64,000 nucleotides of DNA, from contig CAVTRN010000002.1 in the NCBI GenBank assembly GCA_963737155.1, positions 1,312,001 through 1,376,000 of the forward strand, in the 5' to 3' direction. This DNA is from Nitrospirota bacterium (lineage in GTDB: Bacteria > Nitrospirota > UBA9217). Numbering within the stretch: the first letter of the stretch is position 1; every line of letters starts with the position of its first letter. The notes below the pieces were generated by a model that searched no databases, had not been told where the DNA came from, and was given only the letters and a program-made list of their open reading frames with translations. Position numbers and translations under genes: made by a program. Shown here piece after piece: positions 7,180 to 16,398 of this stretch.

Positions 7180-10100
7180 TTATCCTAGCTTCTCGATCAA
7201 CTCCCTCACTGTAACAAAAAGATCTCCCTCGATCGGATGGACTATCGGTGCATGCCGGTTCTGGTTCAGCTTCATCAACGGTGCATCCGGGTCCTTGTTG
7301 AAGCAAAGGATCTCGGTGCGAGTTCCCACATAGTCTATGTGCTGCGGCGCTCCCGAGATGCCCAGGGCGATGATGAGCTTTGGGTTGACACGGATACCGG
7401 TCTGTCCGATTTGTGCATCAAGCGGCAGCAGCTTTAAATCCTGCGTGACTTTTCGTGTCGCGCCGAACAATGGCGCAAGACCCCGTCCTTCCAGAACTGA
7501 CTTGAGTTCCTGCGCCAGTTCGAATCCTGCGCGGTCCCTGATACCGTATCCGAGGTCGATAATTATGTCGGCTTGTGAGAGCGTGGTCAATGCTTCTGGC
7601 GGGAGAGGCATAAGCCACTCACTCGACAGAGGATACTCGAGCGCAACAGCTGTGAAATTGCTTCGCATCTCCGGTGCACCGAATTCGGCATTCCGGGGAA
7701 TAGTAAGGAATGCCGATTCTTCTCCCAGACGCTCTTTTCTGATAAGCCTGTTGTCATAGGCGGCCATTGAAATTCTCATGGATCGGTCTTCCTGGTACAC
7801 GATTGACCCGATATCCCCGTAAACGTGAACGTGCCGTCCTGTGGAAAATAGCTGAGCGGCAACTACGCCAAAAGCATCAAGCCAGTAGGAACCTCCCAGA
7901 ACTAACGGCTTATCCGATGTTTTGGTGATGACGCGAAGCAGTTCCTCCTTTCCCTCAATAGACAACATACTATCTCCAGTGTCCAGGCAGAAAGCCCGGT
8001 CAGCCCCGTTCGCGCGCGTCAGTCCCAACAGCATGGACCAGAACGCCCTTGGGGCAGCGACGACGGCATTCATCGGTCTGCTGAAACCATCGGCAATTTT
8101 TCTCCCTGCTCGAAGGATCGCGGCATTAGCCTTCTGCTCGCGCGGGTCAAGAATTGCCCAGATCGCGTGGTCGTCAGACAACCTGCCTCGGACTATTTCT
8201 CCCTGATACTCTTCCGCCTGCGCCGAGCGCGCTTGGGCAGCATAGTTACCGAGATATTCAGCAGCAGCCTGAACTGTGGTAATTGTTGCCGCCGGAGCAG
8301 CAGCTCCCGCTGGCCGCTCGAATCGGGGTGTTTGTGCTGCGGCGGATTGAATAGCGGAATTAATCACCATAATATGCGCGAATGACGATGTCACTGTCAT
8401 CGATATATCCTGTTCAGACGGGGCAGTGACACCAGTAATGCTGAGAACGGCCGGTGGGGCAATTTGCTCAAGACCCATCCCATCAGGGCGGGCCAGGAAC
8501 CGCGACTTTCGGTAATGTGTTCTAGAAAGAGCTCCGGCCAGATAGGCGCCGGCTCCCTGCTCGCCATTCAGGCATGAAGATCCTATGGTAATAAGATCGT
8601 ATTGGTTCATTACTTCCAGAGTATGTACAGTGCTTGCAATTTCTGCAGGAGTCGCAAAATTGCAGTTCAACCGGATAAGTCGGTCTGCAGAGGCGGCGGC
8701 TGAACGAAGGAGTTGTTCGTGTCCGGCGTTGCCGATAAGAAGCGCATCGACATAGACCATATTACTACTTTCTGCTTTGAGTGAAAGAGCTTGAGTGACG
8801 CCAGAGAGATCTAAAGGATCAGTGATCTCGACGATCTCTTTGATCGAACCGTGCTCCAGTCTGGGTTTCGGTGACAGATCGAAAACAGGCCGAAGTATGC
8901 AGAGTATCCTGAGTTGAGCCTTGAGAGGGGCTGAAGTTTCGAAGACTGTTTCGACCTGCAAGTATGCCCGGCCAAGCGCTGCATCCGCTGCGCGTACTTC
9001 AGCTAGATCGAGGTTCTGCCTTACCTGCTCCCATGCATATTTAAAGCGGTCCCTGATTGCCGCAAGGCGGGCCAGTGTGCGTTCAGCAGCGCGATCTCCC
9101 GCAATGAGCAGCAAGGGAACATATTCGGGATCGGATTGCTCAAGAAGTTTTTTTCGACAGCCGAGCCATTCCATCCTGTAGTAAATACATTCGAGTCGCA
9201 GAATCTCTCCTGCCATATCCGCGAGCGGGAACAGGGCAGGCTGGAGCATGGCATCGGACCATGATAAATCGCCGAGCAGGGCTACCGCATCTTTAACGAA
9301 TGTACGAAGCATGTTTTTCCATTCGGCAAGCACCTGAGCGCTGTTGTCCCTTGATTGTGCGGTCAGCTCGGGCCATGTCTGCGCCTGGGTGATCAGGTCG
9401 CGTAGGATCAGGAAGCGCTGCACTTCGTTCGTTCCTTCGTAGATCGTAAGGATGCGGGCGTCACGCCGCGCTTTTTCGAGCAGGAAATGTTCCGTTTGCC
9501 CCTGAGGGCCGAAAGCGTATTCGACGAGCGTGAGGAGTTCGTGGATGTCCTCGGAACAGGCGTATTTGGCAATGGCAGACTCCATGCGCACCGATTCGTG
9601 AGGGCGGTCAAAGAGGCCAATGAGATAGAAGGCAAGAGACTCGCTCCCGAACAGGATTGCGGCGGCTTCGCCGAGAAGTTTATCCCGATCGGGAGAAGGA
9701 GTGAGCTGTGAACGCGCTTCATCGAGGAGCTTATGCATGAGCGCTCCGGAGACAACGGCGAGCCCGCAGCGTCCTACATTCAGCGTTTCGAGCGCGTTGG
9801 CCTGTCCATGGCCCTCGTAACCGATTACGGCTTCGCGCGGGACGCGGACATTGTCGATTGATATCTCGTTCGTAGGTGAACCACGCTGACCCATCTTCTT
9901 TTCATCGGCGCCGACCTTGAGCCCTTCGCTGTGGCGGTCCACGAGAAAGCCGGTTACGCCCTCGTCCGTTCGGGCAAAAAGACAAAACTGGGTGGCAATG
10001 CTGCCGTTGGTGATCCACATCTTTGCACCGGTCAGACGGTAATATTCATACATCGGTTTGGTCCCCGCCATTCGCGACTGGCCAATGTCGTGAAACTCGC

Positions 10101-13100
10101 ATACGCTTCCCTTGTAGTGGTAATACCGTGTTCCCCGGTCCGAGGTGTAATCATAATGGTCGTAGTGAATCAAAGAGGATTGTCCATCGGGTGTGCCGTA
10201 TGCAATGCCCTGGCGCGTGAACAGGATTCTGTCCGCATCGATCAGGTAACGGATGTTCTTCTCATCTATCTCGTCGACATAGAAAGCATATCTCCCGTCC
10301 TCAAGCGGTGTGAGCTCCGCGACTGAGAGCCTTGCAATAGTCTTAATACCGCCAGAATCAGATCCCGCCGTGGGTTCAGTCAAGGCAAAGGCGCTCACAC
10401 CGCTGTGGCCGAGATAGCGCAGGAAGAGTTTATGGCATCGCTCCCGGCGAGGCAGCTCATCAAGCGCAGCCACTATATCAGGCATGACATGCTCAAAGAG
10501 TTCTGTGGCATGCTTAAGGGCTGTTATGAATCCATTGAAATCCCCGCGTTGTCCGGCAACACCGGCGCTGTAAAAGGCGCGCAAGAAATTGGAGCTTAAG
10601 TACTTAACCACACGCGTATGACGAATGCGATCGTCCACAAGCTTCATGATCGATTCATACTCTTTCCTGATCCAGGCAGGATCGGGGGAGGAAAAGGATT
10701 TAATGATCCCCGCGAGTCGCTTGCTTATCTCGCCCAAATGCCGGGAGTCATGTGCCAGTGGCGCAAGCTCCTCGCGCACGCGAGGTAACTCATCTTCCAA
10801 CCCGAGAAGGATCGGTGTCGTGCCGATGCTTGTGCTGGCCATGATGAGCAGATTTATTGCCGCATCTCCGAAATTCCCTGCTGCTGAGTTCAGGATATAA
10901 TATTCGGCTTTATGCCAGCCGAGACCGTTTTCGGCTTGTGGAATGTAGGTCGCGAGCCATTTGTGCTCTTTTATTGCCGTGATTACCTCATCGGGCAGGC
11001 TGTGGTCCCGCTCAATTGCGCGTTCAATGAAGAGACCGCCGAAAAATTTATCCCGGCAGTTTATTTTGAACCAGTCGGTAAGTTCAAGCCATCGCGCTCG
11101 CAAATGAGGATCGTGGAGCTGAATTTCAGGAAGATAACGGGGAGAGCGGTCGAAGACGTTCTTCAGAAAGCTACCAGAGGAATGAGGAACTCCCGGAGTT
11201 GTGCAGAACGTTTTGTAATCACTGTCCAGTGCCACTGAGGGAAGGATCGGCTCAGCAGGGAACAGGGCTGATGGTGAAACACGACCGCGTCCAGCTGACA
11301 ATAGAGCTTCCTGAAGCATAGTTTTTGCCTGTCCTAGCAGCACTTCAGCCGCGGCTGCTTCGGCTTCCCTGCTTGTGCCGTTTTCGAGTGCAAGCTCAAT
11401 TTTATGGAGTACGATGCGGATACCAATGAGGAGCGCTTTAACCTGCCCCGCCAGCAGGGAATCCACGTCTTCAGGTAGATCAATGCAGAGAGTTTCGAGC
11501 TCCTCAAGCTGCTTCGCGCGTTTTTCGAGCGGTTCTCCCCGAATAGTCATCGATTTCCAAGATTGGAAAATTGACCTGTCTCTGCCTCGTAAACGGAGAA
11601 GGGCATGCAAAGATGCAGCCGCTCCGTAACCGGGAGAAAGGAATCGGAACAGCGCACTGTCGCGGTAGAATCTCGAGAGCAGATCATCCTCGGAATATGC
11701 AAAACCGCCGAAAACCTGGCCGGCATCGTAGCCTAGGCTGCCGGGCTCAGGGCCGAAAGCAGCAGCGGCGAGGGTTGAAGATATAAGATCAAGTTCGGTG
11801 TCTGGTGTCTCGAGTTCAGCGAAAGAATCAAAGAGCGTTTTTAGCAGCAAGCGCCAGGCTTCGATCCTGCTGATCATGGCTTTTACCGCGCCGAGTTTGG
11901 CGATGCCGTCACGGCCTTCCGTATCGAGCATCTGGCCAGGGAACTGAATGCGGCCTATCGCGTGCTCCGCAGCTCTTCGCGAAAGATAATCAGCGGCTCC
12001 AAGGGCAACGGCAAGATAGGAAAAAGCGCAAGGGATCCCATTATTGTCATGGGCGAGGACGTCGTGTCTTTTCACGCTGCAGTCTAGCGTAACATCGGAA
12101 AATGACGCCGCTCTGAAGCCGATTGTCGGCGTGCTCGTGATCATAACACCGTTTGTGGTTAGCGGTATGATATTTCCCCTCCCTCCCGCTATGAGAAGGA
12201 GTGTATGACATGCGGCAAGTGGAACAAAATTTAATGTGCCCCGGATTCGGACACTTTCAAGACCCTCCTCTATCACGAGATGCTCTGCTCTCACGGCGCA
12301 GATCCCGGGATTGAGCATGGTGCCTGCTGTCCTTAGCGTCTTGATCGCTGCAAACTGGTGTGCTGCAATGAGACCGAGTGCTGGGCTGATTGTTGAGAGC
12401 GCCCTGACCGCTTCATGCGGAGAGTCGGTGTGGTCCGCAATAAATGTGTGCAGCATTGCAGCTCCTGCTGCTCCCAGCGGTTCCTCCTCCCATTGCTTGA
12501 CCACGCGATCCGGAAAGAGAAGTGATATCGATTCATAAGATATGGTCCCGGTGCTTCGTCGCGCCTTTGCGGTCGTCGCAGGAGGTTCGACATCGCGTAC
12601 CCCTCTCCATGTCAAAAGGCGCTGTTCCAAGGTTCGACAGTTGTAGAACACATGGAACAGCTTTCCCTCCATCAGCCGTAATTCGATGGCGGTTTTATCC
12701 GAGTGGATCAGCTGGGATAACCCCTCCCTGCTGTCATTCGAGAGCGCCGTCTCTAGATGCCCGAGCTTTTCGATCAGCCGTTTTCCAATCAAGAGGGGCC
12801 AGGCTTTTCTACTTTTATCCCCGGAGGAAGGAAATTGTTTCACAGCATCCATGAAAGCCAACGTCGCATTCAAGGCAGACCGGCAGGCAGCCTTGATGTT
12901 GTCACTCAGATACCAAACCGTTTCATCGAGTGCCCGTATGATTGCATGCCCAGCCTCAGAAGGGCGGAACCTTGGAGAGGAATCCCTGAGCGAATTCAGC
13001 AGCAGCGATATGGTTCCGCTCTCGGGTCGGTAAATGAGTTTATGGTCCGTGTGTCGGCCCCAGAGTGTGCGGGCCGGCTCGGCGCGCCAGCACGTTTCGC

Positions 13101-15090
13101 ACTTGATACAGTTTTCGTAGTTCACCGTTACCTTGCCGCGTCCCATGAGCGGAACGTCATAAATATAAACCCGGGCGGGACAAACCCACCAGAGTGCCGA
13201 CTTGGACATCTCCTGCTGCTCCGCAAGGGAGTCCGGCCAGAGGGTTTTTATGTGGGACGGGGTGCCCACACGGTATGTGTTGGCAGCGAGCTTTGTCTCC
13301 AGATTTTCACGGACCTTTACTGATTCGAGATTCCGCGCTTTCCTCTGTGATTCGCCATAAGCACTAACTGGTTCGGCTAGAAATTTGTCCACGGGCGTTT
13401 TTATCACGTAAAAACGAAAAGCGTCCCAAACGCCCGTCCAAAGGGCAATCAGAAAGAGCGAGGTGCCAAAGAGGGGAAGGATGAGGAGGTCGCTCAGGTT
13501 CAGGCCGCGTATGACGAGGAGAACGGCCTTTGATAATTTCTTATCTAGCGTCTGTCCGTCATGGGAATAGACCTGCTCGAGCGCGAGCAGGATTGCGGGC
13601 GAAAGCCGTTTGATGAATGAGTTTACAGGCCAAGGCAAATTTGAGGGGTCGATTGTCCCGTTGTTGATGCGAAGCAGGATGCCCAGCTTCGGGTCGGGGG
13701 CGGGTGTTTTTGTGAAGACATTGGCAATCCAGTGCCCGATTGTGGCCGGGTTGAATACGGACATCATAATTGGCTTCCATAGCCTGAGCGATCTGATCAT
13801 CTTCGAGTTGTCCGAAATGGACTCCCTGAGGCCGCGCCAGGAAAGAAGGTGGTTTCTGAGGAACCGTCCTGTTTGAATATAGCTTCCGCTTGATAAGAAA
13901 TGCGCTGATCCGCAGACGATGTCGACAGTCCTGCCGAAGAGGGCCGATGAACCCCCAAAATACTTAGGCCACGTTGACAGATACCGGGCATTTTTGCCGT
14001 ACGCACTGGCCTGGAGTGGCGCAAGATATTCCTGCTCGAGATTTTTCGCATCCGGCGTACGACCTCGGCCCAGTATTGCTTTCACGGCCCGAGCGAAGTA
14101 AAGTCCGGTTGCAGATGCCGGGCCGGTGAAATTCGGGAAGGGGAAGTCGATACCTAATCCGACAGGGGCTCCACCCACGGCAAGGCCGTCTTCAACCAGA
14201 ACAGGCCGTTCGGTCCATCCGCCACTCCTGATGAGCTTAGCTCCATAAGCGGAGAGTTCTGCGCTTCCGGCAAGTTCCTTTATATAGGGTAGTCCCCGCA
14301 ACCACTCGAAAAGTCTGTCGTGGTCGCCGTGGTAATGCTTTTTCAAATTGTCCAAGGGGACCACATATCCGAGAGACAGGCTGTCGCTGTTTGTATACAG
14401 GAACCCCCCGATATTAAGTCTAGCCGTCTTTCCGGCGATTGAAGCATTCCGGATGAGAAGCTCATAGGCGCATCCTTCGCCGGGTTGCAAATTGAACCGA
14501 GATTCGATGTCAGAAGGCTTGAGCGATAGCACTGCTTTCACACCCTGGAGATAATGAGGTTCCGAAACACGTTCGAGCTGTTCTGACCGAATCAGATGGG
14601 AAGCGTCGCCTTCGGCGATAAAAACGATGTCCGCATAAAGTGGCCCGCGGTTTGTCTGGACCCCGACGACTCTTCGACCCTTCCGAAGAAGTGCAAAAAC
14701 TGTTGTTTCGGTGATATGAACCGCACCTTTTCTGTGTGCAAGGTGCGCAAAGTAGGGGTCATAGATGGGTCTGAGCACAGTGTAGCAGTTTTTAAACGCA
14801 TCGGCGTTCATGAACTCCACGCCAACGACGTCAAGACCGTTATGCATGAGAGTTCCGCGCCGGATTACCCGCCGTTCAAAGGGTGCGGTCTCAACGGCTT
14901 CGCGGCCGAAGCAGTCATTTTCAGCAAGAATTTCGGTAAAGTAAACGCATCCCGACCAGTTTTCGGAACCTGCATAAACACCTGCTTCGATCAGCGCAAC
15001 GGATATACCCGCATTGGCAAGAGCGCCAGCAGCGGCGACACCCGCGGGACCGGCCCCGACAACAATGACATCGAATTTATACCGGATCAT
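7180..15090 (-). CDS. Giant multidomain fusion: FixC-like FAD oxidoreductase + FixX-like 4Fe-4S + degenerate acyl-CoA dehydrogenase + acyl-CoA dehydrogenase + ETF beta + ETF alpha
   Basis: FixC: DVIVVGAGPAG...GSENWSG. FixX: CPARVY...CIKCETC. ACAD-like: GRIQFPG, QVFGGFAY, RFYRD. ACAD: FALTEPTAGSD, GAKMWITNG, KMGQRGSPT, IYEGTNEVQR. ETF-beta: LRILCILRPVFD...DPLD. ETF-alpha: QIGQTG, GISGAPQH, NKDPDAPL. Confidence 0.9.
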   Translation of the reverse strand: MIRYKFDVIVVGAGPAGVAAAGALANAGISVALIEAGVYAGSENWSGCVYFTEILAENDCFGREAVETAPFERRVIRRGTLMHNGLDVVGVEFMNADAFKNCYTVLRPIYDPYFAHLAHRKGAVHITETTVFALLRKGRRVVGVQTNRGPLYADIVFIAEGDASHLIRSEQLERVSEPHYLQGVKAVLSLKPSDIESRFNLQPGEGCAYELLIRNASIAGKTARLNIGGFLYTNSDSLSLGYVVPLDNLKKHYHGDHDRLFEWLRGLPYIKELAGSAELSAYGAKLIRSGGWTERPVLVEDGLAVGGAPVGLGIDFPFPNFTGPASATGLYFARAVKAILGRGRTPDAKNLEQEYLAPLQASAYGKNARYLSTWPKYFGGSSALFGRTVDIVCGSAHFLSSGSYIQTGRFLRNHLLSWRGLRESISDNSKMIRSLRLWKPIMMSVFNPATIGHWIANVFTKTPAPDPKLGILLRINNGTIDPSNLPWPVNSFIKRLSPAILLALEQVYSHDGQTLDKKLSKAVLLVIRGLNLSDLLILPLFGTSLFLIALWTGVWDAFRFYVIKTPVDKFLAEPVSAYGESQRKARNLESVKVRENLETKLAANTYRVGTPSHIKTLWPDSLAEQQEMSKSALWWVCPARVYIYDVPLMGRGKVTVNYENCIKCETCWRAEPARTLWGRHTDHKLIYRPESGTISLLLNSLRDSSPRFRPSEAGHAIIRALDETVWYLSDNIKAACRSALNATLAFMDAVKQFPSSGDKSRKAWPLLIGKRLIEKLGHLETALSNDSREGLSQLIHSDKTAIELRLMEGKLFHVFYNCRTLEQRLLTWRGVRDVEPPATTAKARRSTGTISYESISLLFPDRVVKQWEEEPLGAAGAAMLHTFIADHTDSPHEAVRALSTISPALGLIAAHQFAAIKTLRTAGTMLNPGICAVRAEHLVIEEGLESVRIRGTLNFVPLAACHTLLLIAGGRGNIIPLTTNGVMITSTPTIGFRAASFSDVTLDCSVKRHDVLAHDNNGIPCAFSYLAVALGAADYLSRRAAEHAIGRIQFPGQMLDTEGRDGIAKLGAVKAMISRIEAWRLLLKTLFDSFAELETPDTELDLISSTLAAAAFGPEPGSLGYDAGQVFGGFAYSEDDLLSRFYRDSALFRFLSPGYGAAASLHALLRLRGRDRSIFQSWKSMTIRGEPLEKRAKQLEELETLCIDLPEDVDSLLAGQVKALLIGIRIVLHKIELALENGTSREAEAAAAEVLLGQAKTMLQEALLSAGRGRVSPSALFPAEPILPSVALDSDYKTFCTTPGVPHSSGSFLKNVFDRSPRYLPEIQLHDPHLRARWLELTDWFKINCRDKFFGGLFIERAIERDHSLPDEVITAIKEHKWLATYIPQAENGLGWHKAEYYILNSAAGNFGDAAINLLIMASTSIGTTPILLGLEDELPRVREELAPLAHDSRHLGEISKRLAGIIKSFSSPDPAWIRKEYESIMKLVDDRIRHTRVVKYLSSNFLRAFYSAGVAGQRGDFNGFITALKHATELFEHVMPDIVAALDELPRRERCHKLFLRYLGHSGVSAFALTEPTAGSDSGGIKTIARLSVAELTPLEDGRYAFYVDEIDEKNIRYLIDADRILFTRQGIAYGTPDGQSSLIHYDHYDYTSDRGTRYYHYKGSVCEFHDIGQSRMAGTKPMYEYYRLTGAKMWITNGSIATQFCLFARTDEGVTGFLVDRHSEGLKVGADEKKMGQRGSPTNEISIDNVRVPREAVIGYEGHGQANALETLNVGRCGLAVVSGALMHKLLDEARSQLTPSPDRDKLLGEAAAILFGSESLAFYLIGLFDRPHESVRMESAIAKYACSEDIHELLTLVEYAFGPQGQTEHFLLEKARRDARILTIYEGTNEVQRFLILRDLITQAQTWPELTAQSRDNSAQVLAEWKNMLRTFVKDAVALLGDLSWSDAMLQPALFPLADMAGEILRLECIYYRMEWLGCRKKLLEQSDPEYVPLLLIAGDRAAERTLARLAAIRDRFKYAWEQVRQNLDLAEVRAADAALGRAYLQVETVFETSAPLKAQLRILCILRPVFDLSPKPRLEHGSIKEIVEITDPLDLSGVTQALSLKAESSNMVYVDALLIGNAGHEQLLRSAAASADRLIRLNCNFATPAEIASTVHTLEVMNQYDLITIGSSCLNGEQGAGAYLAGALSRTHYRKSRFLARPDGMGLEQIAPPAVLSITGVTAPSEQDISMTVTSSFAHIMVINSAIQSAAAQTPRFERPAGAAAPAATITTVQAAAEYLGNYAAQARSAQAEEYQGEIVRGRLSDDHAIWAILDPREQKANAAILRAGRKIADGFSRPMNAVVAAPRAFWSMLLGLTRANGADRAFCLDTGDSMLSIEGKEELLRVITKTSDKPLVLGGSYWLDAFGVVAAQLFSTGRHVHVYGDIGSIVYQEDRSMRISMAAYDNRLIRKERLGEESAFLTIPRNAEFGAPEMRSNFTAVALEYPLSSEWLMPLPPEALTTLSQADIIIDLGYGIRDRAGFELAQELKSVLEGRGLAPLFGATRKVTQDLKLLPLDAQIGQTGIRVNPKLIIALGISGAPQHIDYVGTRTEILCFNKDPDAPLMKLNQNRHAPIVHPIEGDLFVTVRELIEKLG

Positions 15091-15421
15091 GAGTTCTCCT
15101 GTGAACGAGAGAAGGATGCATGGAACATGAAATTGAAATGAGGAAGGTTTGCTGAGTATTCTTTGGTTAGATTATAGCAAATATTCGCACAGCAAGTTAA
15201 TGCCAAGAGGAGAAATAATTCCAGAATTCGTAATTTTCAAGGGTAATGCGGTCTTGAGATATTGTTTATCATAGACACTGCACCTGCCATTTCTTTCTAC
15301 GCAAGAAGTCCTGATAGTATTTAAACCGCAACTTGACAAAATGCTCTTTCCAGAAAGAATCTCGTGAATGTGTTGGCTTAGGCTTACACTGCCTGAGTTA
15401 CAGATTTTTTCAATTATCATC

Positions 15422-15450
15422 TTGACATGGTGGCGCGACTAATGTATGCT
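15422..15450 (+). promoter_or_regulatory. Sigma70-type promoter of the cold-shock gene
   Basis: TTGACA-17 bp-TATGCT. Confidence 0.7.
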
Positions 15451-15508
15451 TAGCCATCCGTGGACATGTTCCCGGGTAATTTCAAAAACGAAGCAGAGGA
15501 GAAACAGA

Positions 15509-15709
15509 ATGGCAAATGGTGTAGTGAAGTGGTTCAACAACAGCAAGGGGTTTGGGTTCATCACGCAGGAAAATGGTGAGGATGTGTTCGTTCATTTTTC
15601 GGCGATCCAGGGTGATGGTTTCAAGTCCCTGAACGAGGGCGACAAGGTGACCTTCGAAGTTGTGAAGGGGCCCAAAGGCCTTCAGGCAGCCAACGTAAAT
15701 AAGGCTTAA
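15509..15709 (+). CDS. Cold-shock protein, CspA family
   Basis: [37 protein letters not shown]; GAGGAG RBS. Confidence 0.97.
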
Positions 15710-15742
15710 TAAGATTCGGAGAAAATAATACTTAAACACTCC

Positions 15743-15773
15743 AAAAGCCCCTGAAAAATCAGGGGCTTTTTTT
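15743..15773 (+). terminator. Rho-independent terminator after csp
   Basis: AAAAGCCCCTGA-AAAA-TCAGGGGCTTTT followed by a T-run. Confidence 0.9.
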
Positions 15774-15859
15774 ATATCCTTGGCGTTTGCGGGAGGGCGG
15801 GTACTCACCGATTTCTTTGTTGCGGATTCTAAATATTCTTATTTTTATAAAAAACATCC

Positions 15860-16398
15860 TTGAATACCCAGCAGCTTGCTGCTGGGATGAAAAGGATATC
15901 CTGACGAAGTCAGGATGATTTTCTGATACAATACGGGCCATGAGCCCATTGAGAAGAAGCAGACATTGTGTCTATGATCTCAAGTACCATTTCGTATGGA
16001 TACCGAAATATCGTAAAAAACTGTTCGACGTTCGGATGACGAAACGATTGAAAGAAATCTTTCGTGAGATAGCTGAACAGTACGATTTGGAAATAGATAC
16101 GATGGAAGTCATGGATGACCATGTACACTTGTTTTTGGTTGTTCCTCCGAAGTATGCGTCTGCGAAGGTAGTACAAATGATTAAAAGTATCTCCGCCAGA
16201 ATAATGTTCCAAGAGTTCCCGGAGATAAAGAAAAAGCTCTGGGGAGGGGAACTGTGGAACGATGGTTACTTTGTCCGTTCGGTTGGCGACAAAGTAACGG
16301 CGGAAGTGATTAGAAACTATATTCGGTATCAGCATGATGAGCAAATAGGTTTTAGATTCTAGTCAAAATGCCTCGCAGCTTGCTGCGGGGTTATTTAC
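15860..16398 (+). mobile_element. IS200/IS605-family insertion sequence (tnpA only)
   Basis: Y1 transposase flanked by subterminal hairpins CCCAGCAGCTTGCTGCTGGG (15867-15886) and CCTCGCAGCTTGCTGCGGGG (16371-16390); exact ends approximate. Confidence 0.85.
15940..16362 (+). CDS. tnpA: IS200/IS605 Y1 (HUH) transposase
   Basis: YHFVWIPKYR, DHVHLF (HUH), LWNDGYFVRSVG, YIRYQ (catalytic Tyr). Confidence 0.95.
   Translation: MSPLRRSRHCVYDLKYHFVWIPKYRKKLFDVRMTKRLKEIFREIAEQYDLEIDTMEVMDDHVHLFLVVPPKYASAKVVQMIKSISARIMFQEFPEIKKKLWGGELWNDGYFVRSVGDKVTAEVIRNYIRYQHDEQIGFRF

Follow-up and report, generated by a model that had tools for sequence, protein, structure and literature searches.

A putative single-polypeptide acyl-CoA:quinone oxidoreductase encoded by a fusion gene family found in at least seven bacterial phyla

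We analysed a stretch of 64,000 nucleotides (hereafter the window) from a Nitrospirota bacterium (GTDB lineage Bacteria; Nitrospirota; UBA9217; assembly GCA_963737155.1, contig CAVTRN010000002.1, positions 1,312,001 to 1,376,000), in which one gene fuses modules related to acyl-CoA dehydrogenase (ACAD), electron transfer flavoprotein (ETF) and ETF:quinone oxidoreductase (ETF-QO). The gene lies on the minus strand at positions 7180 to 15090, as a single uninterrupted open reading frame (ORF) of 2636 codons plus stop with an ATG start, and its translation runs over 2636 amino acids (aa) without an internal stop. A first-pass annotation, made from the letters of the window, had already recognized this frame and a succession of domains within it. 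The frame agrees with the ORF list and the stop-free translation, the domain order and approximate boundaries are right to within a few tens of residues, and every domain that was named is recovered by sequence, profile or fold. Two ACAD copies are distinguished below, ACAD' and the active ACAD. From the N-terminus to the C-terminus, the features of the protein are:

13891-15090, minus strand: FixC/ETF-QO-type domain binding flavin adenine dinucleotide (FAD), aa 1-400; profile, sequence and fold matches; GxGxxG at G12/G14/G17
13291-13890, minus strand: helical insertion between the FAD and Fe-S domains, aa 401-600; weakly conserved; alignment and model
13408-13497, minus strand: long hydrophobic helix, aa 532-561; hydropathy and a 30-residue helix in the model
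12991-13290, minus strand: ETF-QO-type Fe-S domain, aa 601-700; Pfam Fer4_ETF_QO, E 0.0073; alignment to residues 496-567 of 2gmh
13090-13182, minus strand: predicted [4Fe-4S] ligand motif C637-P-A...C661-x2-C664-x2-C667, aa 637-667; alignment
12544-12990, minus strand: linker and helical region, aa 701-849; poorly conserved; alignment
11596-12543, minus strand: ACAD', aa 850-1165; ACAD fold lacking the catalytic Glu; profile, motifs and models
11101-11595, minus strand: helical extension after ACAD', aa 1166-1330; aligns to the VLCAD C-terminal domain; helices in the model
9376-11100, minus strand: active ACAD, aa 1331-1905; TEPTAGSDSGG, KMWITNG and IYEGTNE (E1885); Pfam and sequence matches
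8956-9375, minus strand: C-terminal helical extension of the active ACAD, aa 1906-2045; VLCAD/ACAD9-like; Foldseek
8191-8916, minus strand: ETFbeta-like domain, aa 2059-2300; weakly conserved; profile matches
7183-8133, minus strand: ETFalpha, aa 2320-2636; domain I and FAD-binding domain II; Pfam ETF_alpha at aa 2504-2585

The central part of the protein (aa 850-2045) holds the two ACAD copies in tandem, a degenerate one followed by an intact one with a C-terminal helical extension, an early reading with which profile, Pfam, motifs and fold all agree. In the active ACAD, the three Pfam domains of the family are found across aa 1357-1899 (PF02771, N-terminal, 23.2 bits against a cut-off of 22.9; PF02770, middle, 61.2 against 33.3; PF00441, C-terminal, 65.0 against 22.4), and the best sequence match of the core is ACAD9 (E 1.6e-31), with CarC and VLCAD also matched. 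Long family-specific insertions interrupt its N- and beta-domains (aa ~1430-1560 and ~1585-1680), and the top Foldseek matches that reveal its helical extension are 7s7g, 2uxw, 3b96 and 8phe (TMt 0.72-0.76). ACAD' is matched weakly when a single sequence is searched against the PDB (4n5f, E 0.0064) and clearly with a profile of 29 sequences (VLCAD 8ca1_B, 4.1e-11; butyryl-CoA dehydrogenase 1buc, 7.8e-11), positions 288-595 of the profile aligning to 8ca1_B 281-632. The structure of the whole module is predicted with a pLDDT of 89.6 and a pTM of 0.90, and in the model it would behave as one rigid body. The folds that match it best are those of long ACADs carrying a helical domain at the C-terminus (VLCAD, ACAD9, 2z1q, 3owa; TMt 0.67-0.76, E ~1e-14).

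An alignment of the protein with 43 homologs brings out a division of residues between the two copies. The IYEGTNE motif, whose glutamate occupies what we take, from MCAD-type enzymes, to be the catalytic position of the YEGT loop, is present in the second ACAD of 44/44 sequences, and ACAD' contains no YEGT. ACAD' keeps R-[VIL]-Q-F in 44/44 and G-Q-x-x-G-G in 43/44, together with S-E-[DE]-D; in the query these motifs, listed as invariant, read R1047-x-Q1049-F1050, G-Q1125-x-x-G1128-G1129 and S1133-E-D-D. In the active ACAD, the counterparts of RxQF and GQxxGG have been lost. In canonical ACAD dimers such as MCAD, these motifs of the C-terminal domain extend over the interface to the partner's FAD. 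The complementary degeneracy of the two copies resembles the division of labour in ChsE4-ChsE5: in mycobacterial alpha2beta2 ACADs, isoalloxazine binding and the Glu belong to the alpha subunit, and contact with the ADP-ribose of the FAD is made by the beta subunit (excerpt of PMC11153573).

When ACAD' (aa 850-1170) and the core of the active ACAD (aa 1330-1905) were predicted as a complex, with FAD as a riding ligand, the best control scored 0.02 and the pair 0.84, a mark reached by 58/80 solved complexes and 2/110 mismatched pairs; such a pass speaks for likeness to an ACAD dimer and not for binding as such. Contact agreement between runs was at least 97%, and the pLDDT of the partner at least 88. 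In this model the invariant residues of the dead copy are exactly those placed against the active-site motifs of the live copy. Q1049 and F1050 contact G1576-D1578 of the TEPTAGSD motif, Q1125, G1128 and G1129 contact I1883-E1889 around IYEGTNE, and E1134 with its neighbours contacts K1732-Q1735. Conservation and model together suggest that ACAD' is a conserved partner completing the flavin site of the active ACAD and not mere debris. The earlier label of a "degenerate" ACAD thus holds for the missing catalytic Glu and does not extend to the invariant residues at the modelled interface.

A stand-alone ACAD' family was also sought among shorter proteins; the search gave 33 matches at 41-69% identity, several of them partial or on short contigs, and no distinct family. 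An exhaustive search of representatives with aa 850-1330 yielded 113 matches with E<=1e-3; among the matches listed, 34 belong to proteins of at least 2200 aa with the match at the equivalent position, and the rest are shorter.

The N-terminal part combines a FixC-type flavin domain with an Fe-S domain of ETF-QO type. Over aa 4-318 the best NCBIfam model is PRK10015 (E 1.3e-47), with 162.5 bits where 466 are required; a further FixC model reaches 120.1 bits of the 610 required, and no NCBIfam model reaches its cut-off anywhere in the protein. Among solved structures, aa 1-720 are best matched by FixC of Thermotoga maritima (7koe_C, E 4.5e-31), and porcine ETF-QO (2gmh) is matched in three pieces, the cluster stretch included. 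The model of the N-terminal 720 aa (pLDDT 87.5, pTM 0.88) superimposes on 7koe_C with a TMt of 0.80 and a root-mean-square deviation of 2.6, and on ETF-QO (2gmh_A) over its whole length, with 743 columns and a TMt of 0.68. We presume that this domain carries the quinone-reducing flavin.

The cysteines of the CPA...CxxCxxC motif (C637, C661, C664 and C667) are present in 44/44 sequences and align to the cluster region of 2gmh. Pfam Fer4_ETF_QO matches aa 631-672 with 16.9 bits, below its cut-off of 24, and scored 22 bits for the fusion gene in a genome search, again below cut-off. The region of aa 600-700 contains four cysteines in 37/44 sequences and five in 7/44, from which ligands for one [4Fe-4S] cluster are predicted; a two-cluster module of the FixX/EtfX type, which was considered as well, is ruled out by this count. 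A single [4Fe-4S] cluster is also what ETF-QO contains. The first-pass annotation had called this domain a FixX-like ferredoxin, and the motif it pointed to is confirmed; the domain has one cluster only and not two, as are carried by T. maritima EtfX (excerpt of PMC10734219).

Between the two domains, the hydrophobic segment that had been noticed near 13430-13490 is seen both in the hydropathy profile (aa ~523-561, Kyte-Doolittle peak of 2.05) and as the predicted helix 532-561. In 35/43 homologs, hydropathy over 19 residues peaks at 1.6 or higher in the corresponding place of the alignment, the sequence itself being unconserved. This helix is presumably a membrane anchor, and since both flanking domains must face the cytoplasm, it would be monotopic or re-entrant rather than a transmembrane pass. 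In the gammaproteobacterial loci (L057, L058, L059, L062, L064, L069) the proteins are shorter (2,330-2,447 aa) and the region from the Fe-S domain to the ACADs is reduced. By the hydropathy criterion 4/6 of them have no helix, and their membrane attachment may differ.

The ETF module (aa 2059-2636) comprises the two domains that had been assigned to ETF-beta and to an ETF-alpha with intact FAD motifs. The first escapes detection with a single sequence in both Pfam and the PDB; a profile of the C-terminal 600 aa matches 4kpu_B at 2.2e-22, and a profile restricted to ETFbeta matches 4kpu_B (6.2e-24), 1o94_C (1.5e-20) and 1efv_B (5.3e-17). None of its columns is invariant in 29 sequences, and only a P and an A are nearly so. 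ETFalpha is recognized by Pfam (PF00766, E 5.7e-18, 65.1 bits against a cut-off of 27), and the C-terminal profile spans a full-length ETFalpha (6fah_A, 5.3e-38). Domain II contains 26 invariant columns, all within the last ~170 aa. The module is probably of the plain electron-transfer type, with ETFbeta acting as a scaffold rather than a bifurcating site, because no ETFbeta column is invariant and the protein has a single cluster.

The fusion is a conserved family in at least seven phyla. A word-indexed protein search returned 432 matches with E<=1e-3; among 119 listed entries other than the query, 105 have a length of 2,500 aa or more. Across species-representative genomes, 43 loci were found to contain an intact ORF (2,330-3,053 aa), from Nitrospirota, Leptospirillia, Planctomycetota (including Gemmataceae), Acidobacteriota, Gemmatimonadota, Verrucomicrobiota, Lentisphaeraceae and Gammaproteobacteria/Acidiferrobacter; the carriers inspected are all metagenome-assembled genomes (MAGs). 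Relatives thus possess the full-length fusion and not separate genes only. Because each 40-residue window of the alignment is occupied in at least 72% of the sequences, no module is optional. The best-conserved parts are the FixC-type domain, the four-cysteine motif, ACAD' in its C-terminal half, the core of the active ACAD and domain II of ETFalpha. In a quick maximum-likelihood tree, midpoint-rooted for drawing only, Verrucomicrobiota, Pseudomonadota, Acidobacteriota and Gemmatimonadota each fall on one side of a branch with an SH-aLRT of 100, and Planctomycetota appear in three places. Such a pattern fits a fusion that arose once and was then inherited largely vertically, with transfer in some cases. 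Of the genomes sampled from the window's own phylum, 37/201 carry the gene; the carriers are confined to two families (29/44 and 7/7), and the other 24 families sampled have none.

Contigs of sequencing runs bear on the integrity of the gene as well. In an independent soil run from another study (X5), contigs of 90-99% likeness account for 30/30 bins, and the indels listed all fall outside the ORF. Single contigs of this run extend across 7988-8977, the region where ETFbeta joins ETFalpha, and across 12424-13339, the region between the Fe-S domain and ACAD'. Coverage of the stretch by runs X1-X3 is incomplete (20, 17 and 16 of 30 bins). Three soil runs contain a 90-base skip from 9912 to 10003, with flanks of 18-21 letters and loose ends at 9890 and 10020-10031, beyond which the sequence is unlike the window. 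This skip lies on the most conserved ACAD motif (KMWITNG...GQRGSPTNE) and probably stems from ACAD genes of other organisms.

Several variants surround the family. The relatives P0106 (2,398 aa), P0092 (2,607 aa), P0159 and P0166 have ACAD and ETF Pfam domains with no FixC-type match, or ACAD' nearer to the N-terminus, and may be truncated records or variants lacking the quinone module. An ESM Atlas search with aa 601-2636 reached a best score of 0.82, under the 0.9 mark, and offers leads only. Its low-scoring clusters of ETFalpha fusions include a 531-aa ACAD+ETF_alpha protein (mostly Bacillota, 0.80) and an 825-aa ETF_alpha+HpaB protein (mostly Acidobacteriota, 0.77).

Based on these domains, motifs and models, we consider it fairly likely that the gene encodes a single-polypeptide acyl-CoA:(mena)quinone oxidoreductase, in which the three components that normally lead from beta-oxidation to the respiratory chain are fused. 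A fatty acyl-CoA would be dehydrogenated at the active ACAD, with E1885 of IYEGTNE as the base, and the FAD of this site would be completed in trans by ACAD' (through R1047/Q1049/F1050 and Q1125/G1128/G1129), paired with it like the second subunit of a dimer. The electrons would be passed one by one to the FAD in domain II of the tethered ETFalpha, for which ETFbeta and ETFalpha domain I would form the base. From there they would reach the single [4Fe-4S] cluster (C637, C661, C664, C667), then the FixC-type FAD and, lastly, a quinone of the membrane, probably menaquinone here, with helix 532-561 holding the protein at the membrane. Each chain is expected to contain 3 FAD and 1 [4Fe-4S] cluster.

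The genome of the organism provides a plausible setting for such an enzyme. It contains two FadB-like genes and matching thiolases elsewhere, one of these FadB proteins being 44% identical over its length to the FadB encoded beside the fusion in another locus (L024). The fusion gene is the sole ETF-QO-like (Fer4_ETF_QO) match in the genome. Menaquinone is the likely acceptor, because two MqnA/MqnD-family genes of the futalosine pathway to menaquinone score above cut-off and no Ubi-type hydroxylase does so in this genome. Subunit I of a haem-copper oxidase is also encoded. The first-pass annotation had suggested a membrane-associated acyl-CoA:quinone oxidoreductase, an assignment to which the beta-oxidation synteny in other phyla, described below, and the lack of another ETF-QO-like match in the genome lend support by inference.

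Several observations weigh against this proposal. The fusion gene is surrounded in its own window by housekeeping genes (aspS, glmS, glmU, a DEAD-box helicase gene and tsaD), and in 35/43 homologous loci no beta-oxidation neighbour is seen in the available flank (<=6 kb, often cut). The FAD domain is nearer in sequence to a bifurcating FixC than to ETF-QO, and the Pfam Fer4_ETF_QO and NCBIfam FixC scores lie far under the curated cut-offs. ETFbeta is devoid of any invariant residue, which makes the competence of the ETF module uncertain. The hydrophobic helix is undetected in 8/43 homologs, namely 4/6 gammaproteobacterial sequences, 3 from Gemmatimonadota, in which the hydropathy peak lies near position 458 instead, and L063. 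Solved ACAD dimers may have been memorised by the predictor and have shaped the complex score, and the custom alignment and riding ligand depart from the calibration. Lastly, acyl-CoA oxidation has a potential of about -10 mV, and with menaquinone as the acceptor it is uphill under standard conditions. The potential of menaquinone is -74 mV (excerpt of PMC10734219).

The substrate can be approached through the neighbours of the fusion in other genomes. We clustered the flanking ORFs of the 43 loci and of the window; as the flanks extend over 6 kb at most and are often cut, the counts are lower bounds. A thiolase was found in 6/43 loci, a FadB-type hydratase/dehydrogenase in 7/43 and an AMP-binding acyl-CoA synthetase in 7/43, together in 8/43 loci, which belong to gammaproteobacterial MAGs (one Acidiferrobacter), Gemmataceae, Planctomycetia and one unclassified MAG. 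In L057 the fusion is immediately followed by all three genes in the same orientation, in L024 it is immediately preceded by those for thiolase and FadB, again in the same orientation, and L029 has only a divergently oriented synthetase; the Pfam identities of the neighbours were confirmed on representatives from L057 and L024. From these neighbours in 8/43 loci, we infer that the substrate is probably a fatty acyl-CoA. The first-pass annotation had left the substrate unassigned since no CoA ligase, hydratase or thiolase is adjacent, which is true of this window, and it is the neighbours in the other loci that point to fatty acyl-CoA.

The same electron path could serve another thioester, whether branched, aromatic, amino-acid-derived or bound to a carrier protein, a possibility that we regard as rather unlikely. 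The beta-oxidation genes are not adjacent in this window, the ACAD insertions at aa ~1430-1560 and ~1585-1680 are large and family-specific, and the verrucomicrobial loci have a GlpD-like oxidase and a glycerophosphodiester phosphodiesterase instead. Against such a substrate, the ACAD finds its nearest structures among long-chain enzymes (VLCAD, ACAD9 and long ACADs of bacteria) and the neighbours, where present, are the classical fatty-acid set, the verrucomicrobial ones also fitting lipid breakdown. Among the six verrucomicrobial loci (L032, L033, L034, L040, L046, L066), the GlpD-like oxidase cluster is found in 6/6 and the phosphodiesterase cluster in L032, L033, L034 and L040. Genes on the opposite strand start to follow the fusion within ~1-2 kb in these loci; in L032 (10414-12569) they encode the phosphodiesterase, of 229 aa, and the GlpD-like FAD oxidase, of 489 aa. 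Such an arrangement hints at a neighbourhood for the breakdown of phospholipids or lipids.

The direction of electron flow might be opposite to that of the proposed fatty acyl-CoA oxidation. The protein would then be a (mena)quinol-dependent enoyl-CoA reductase, in which electrons run from quinol through the FixC-type FAD, the cluster and ETF to the ACAD flavin, with enoyl-CoA serving, for example, as an electron sink. All steps of such chains are reversible in principle, and the genome appears to make menaquinone; at the potentials given above, electrons would flow downhill from menaquinol to enoyl-CoA. A syntrophic bacterium respires enoyl-CoA by way of ETF and a membrane oxidoreductase. Nevertheless, we judge this direction unlikely: the neighbours in the 8/43 loci are catabolic (AMP-binding acyl-CoA synthetase, FadB and thiolase), the haem-copper oxidase encoded in the genome would keep the quinone pool oxidised, and many aerobes that have only menaquinone oxidise fatty acids.

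An electron bifurcating or confurcating enzyme of the FixABCX or Bcd-EtfAB kind, in which NADH oxidation at an ETFbeta flavin would be coupled to the reduction of quinone or enoyl-CoA together with ferredoxin, seems improbable to us, even if some of the similarities lead in this direction. FixC of the bifurcating T. maritima EtfABCX is the best match of the N-terminal domain in both sequence and fold, and profiles of the two ETF halves score best with components of bifurcating complexes (6fah_A, 7koe_B, 4kpu_B, 6fah_B). Nevertheless, the best single-sequence matches of ETFalpha are the non-bifurcating human and Paracoccus ETFs, and the gap between the bifurcating and the non-bifurcating ETFbeta matches is small (6e-24 against 1.5e-20); the two halves match ETFs of both kinds at similar scores, and similarity does not decide. 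What argues against bifurcation is that ETFbeta, the carrier of the bifurcating FAD in such enzymes, has 0 invariant columns and two nearly invariant ones in 29 sequences, and that the protein has one cluster against the two of EtfX (excerpt of PMC10734219). Finally, an assembly chimera or a decaying pseudogene devoid of function is scarcely credible: nothing was found in its favour, some long-read MAGs showing the gene in pieces (L016, L025, L027 and further fragments), and it is countered by the full-length homologs in at least seven phyla, by a tree that groups largely by phylum and by the independent X5 contigs, which rule out an artefact as far as sequence data go.

The proposed oxidoreductase shares its three catalytic modules with the classical chain from ACAD through ETF to ETF-QO of mitochondria and many aerobic bacteria, and electrons probably pass through them in the order followed there. 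The likeness extends to the YEGT glutamate of the ACAD, the FAD domain of ETFalpha, the CPA...CxxCxxC cluster associated with an FAD domain, and the ETF-QO fold over 743 columns. In contrast to this chain, the fusion is a single polypeptide in which the normally diffusible ETF is tethered, ETFbeta is degenerate and the ACAD is a pseudo-heterodimer with one active site; its FAD domain is nearer in sequence to FixC than to ETF-QO, and Fer4_ETF_QO stays below cut-off. FixABCX/EtfABCX of T. maritima (PDB 7KOE), the best N-terminal match (E 4.5e-31, TMt 0.80), offers the same set of ETFbeta, ETFalpha, FixC and ferredoxin-like modules, and there the path from ETF through Fe-S to the FixC FAD and menaquinone is known (excerpt of PMC10734219). 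That complex consists of four separate subunits, has no ACAD, is driven by NADH and bifurcates, whereas the fusion has one cluster, two ACAD modules and an unconserved ETFbeta.

The mycobacterial alpha2beta2 enzymes ChsE4-ChsE5 (= FadE26-FadE27) and ChsE1-ChsE2 are alike in having one catalytic protomer and another that contacts the ADP-ribose of the FAD (excerpt of PMC11153573). The fusion would parallel ChsE4-ChsE5 in that ACAD' keeps RxQF and GQxxGG and the active ACAD keeps IYEGTNE; the roles of these residues are those given in the MCAD and ChsE literature, and the likeness is drawn from the motif pattern and the model. Enzymes of the ChsE4-ChsE5 type are encoded by separate adjacent genes, are specific for steroid side chains and have no ETF or quinone modules, whereas both halves lie here in one ORF, in tandem, each with a VLCAD-like helical tail. 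The best fold and sequence matches, VLCAD, ACAD9 and the long bacterial ACADs (7s7g, 8phe, 2z1q, 3owa), share the ACAD core and the C-terminal helical domain. Enzymes of the VLCAD/ACAD9 type are homodimers of ~590-660 aa per chain with two active sites and a free ETF; the fusion differs in having a tandem inactive and active pair within a chain of 2,636 aa. The order of the ETF parts has a parallel in SaETF of Sulfolobus acidocaldarius, in which EtfB precedes EtfA in one polypeptide; SaETF stands alone, bifurcates and holds two FADs (excerpt of PMC12042025), whereas the ETF of the fusion is its C-terminal quarter and the beta part is unconserved. A partial fusion is also on record for CarE, which has an N-terminal ferredoxin domain (excerpt of PMC5861303).

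Each module is of a known kind, and the expected chemistry is known. What is new is the complete fusion, the tandem of a dead and a live VLCAD-like copy, the single-cluster ETF-QO-type module with its FixC-like flavin domain and the degenerate ETFbeta. A full-text literature search, whose coverage excludes most subscription journals, found no published description of this fusion. Of the earlier suggestion that the system is undescribed, this much stands, in that no characterized protein with the same architecture was found; the protein is no singleton, and databases already list the family under generic names such as "acyl-CoA dehydrogenase family protein" and "ETF-quinone oxidoreductase".

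If the proposal is correct, the route from acyl-CoA to quinone would be accommodated in one chain with a fixed 1:1:1 stoichiometry, as opposed to an ACAD homo-oligomer, a two-subunit ETF and a membrane-bound ETF-QO. Donor, shuttle and acceptor would be held in a single particle, in which the swing of the ETF domain and the ACAD-ETF and ETF-(Fe-S) encounters could be observed directly, as opposed to the transient complexes formed by separate proteins; the fusion should be striking to flavoenzyme specialists and a good structural target. It would also be a natural case of subfunctionalisation, in which one ACAD copy has turned into a cofactor-completing pseudo-subunit, in parallel to the mycobacterial alpha2beta2 enzymes. 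Metabolic reconstructions of uncultured Nitrospirota, Planctomycetota, Acidobacteriota, Verrucomicrobiota and others would need correction, as a separate ETF-QO may be sought in vain there. In a broader and tentative picture, to which we give slightly less than an even chance, the fusion would be an autonomous respiratory dehydrogenase of single origin in at least seven phyla, with three flavins and one cluster, in which ETF is an intramolecular swinging arm, ETFbeta its scaffold and the dead ACAD a clamp for the flavin; in organisms with menaquinone, it could work reversibly, in fatty-acid oxidation or in quinol-driven enoyl-CoA reduction.

In the window, the fusion gene is convergent with aspS, and its further neighbours are glmS, glmU, a DUF502 gene, an HD-domain gene, the DEAD-box helicase gene and tsaD. 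It looks monocistronic amid these housekeeping genes. Two candidate expression signals precede it, the promoter-like site lying ~80 nt upstream on the same strand:

15096-15100, minus strand: ribosome-binding site AGGAG, 5 nt 5' of the ATG, read from the sequence
15171-15200, minus strand: promoter-like TTAACT-18 nt-(TG)TATAAT, with 10/12 consensus matches; a consensus match only

The gap upstream of the gene is AT-richer (GC 0.44 in 15001-16000) and contains, on the plus strand at 15743-15770, a strong terminator-like hairpin of 12 pairs, 6 of them G-C, with a T-run. Outside the window, ~35 kb past its end (G000:C2:1410795-1415023), an ACAD match with 1 internal TAG and 1 TAA is accompanied by a 405-aa ETFalpha frame and a weak match to thiolase; together they may form a bcd-etf-type cluster of their own, with its ACAD possibly broken or formed by two adjacent genes. 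Further along (G000:C2:1551758-1551886), a weak thiolase-N-like match lies within an open frame of 2,792 aa.

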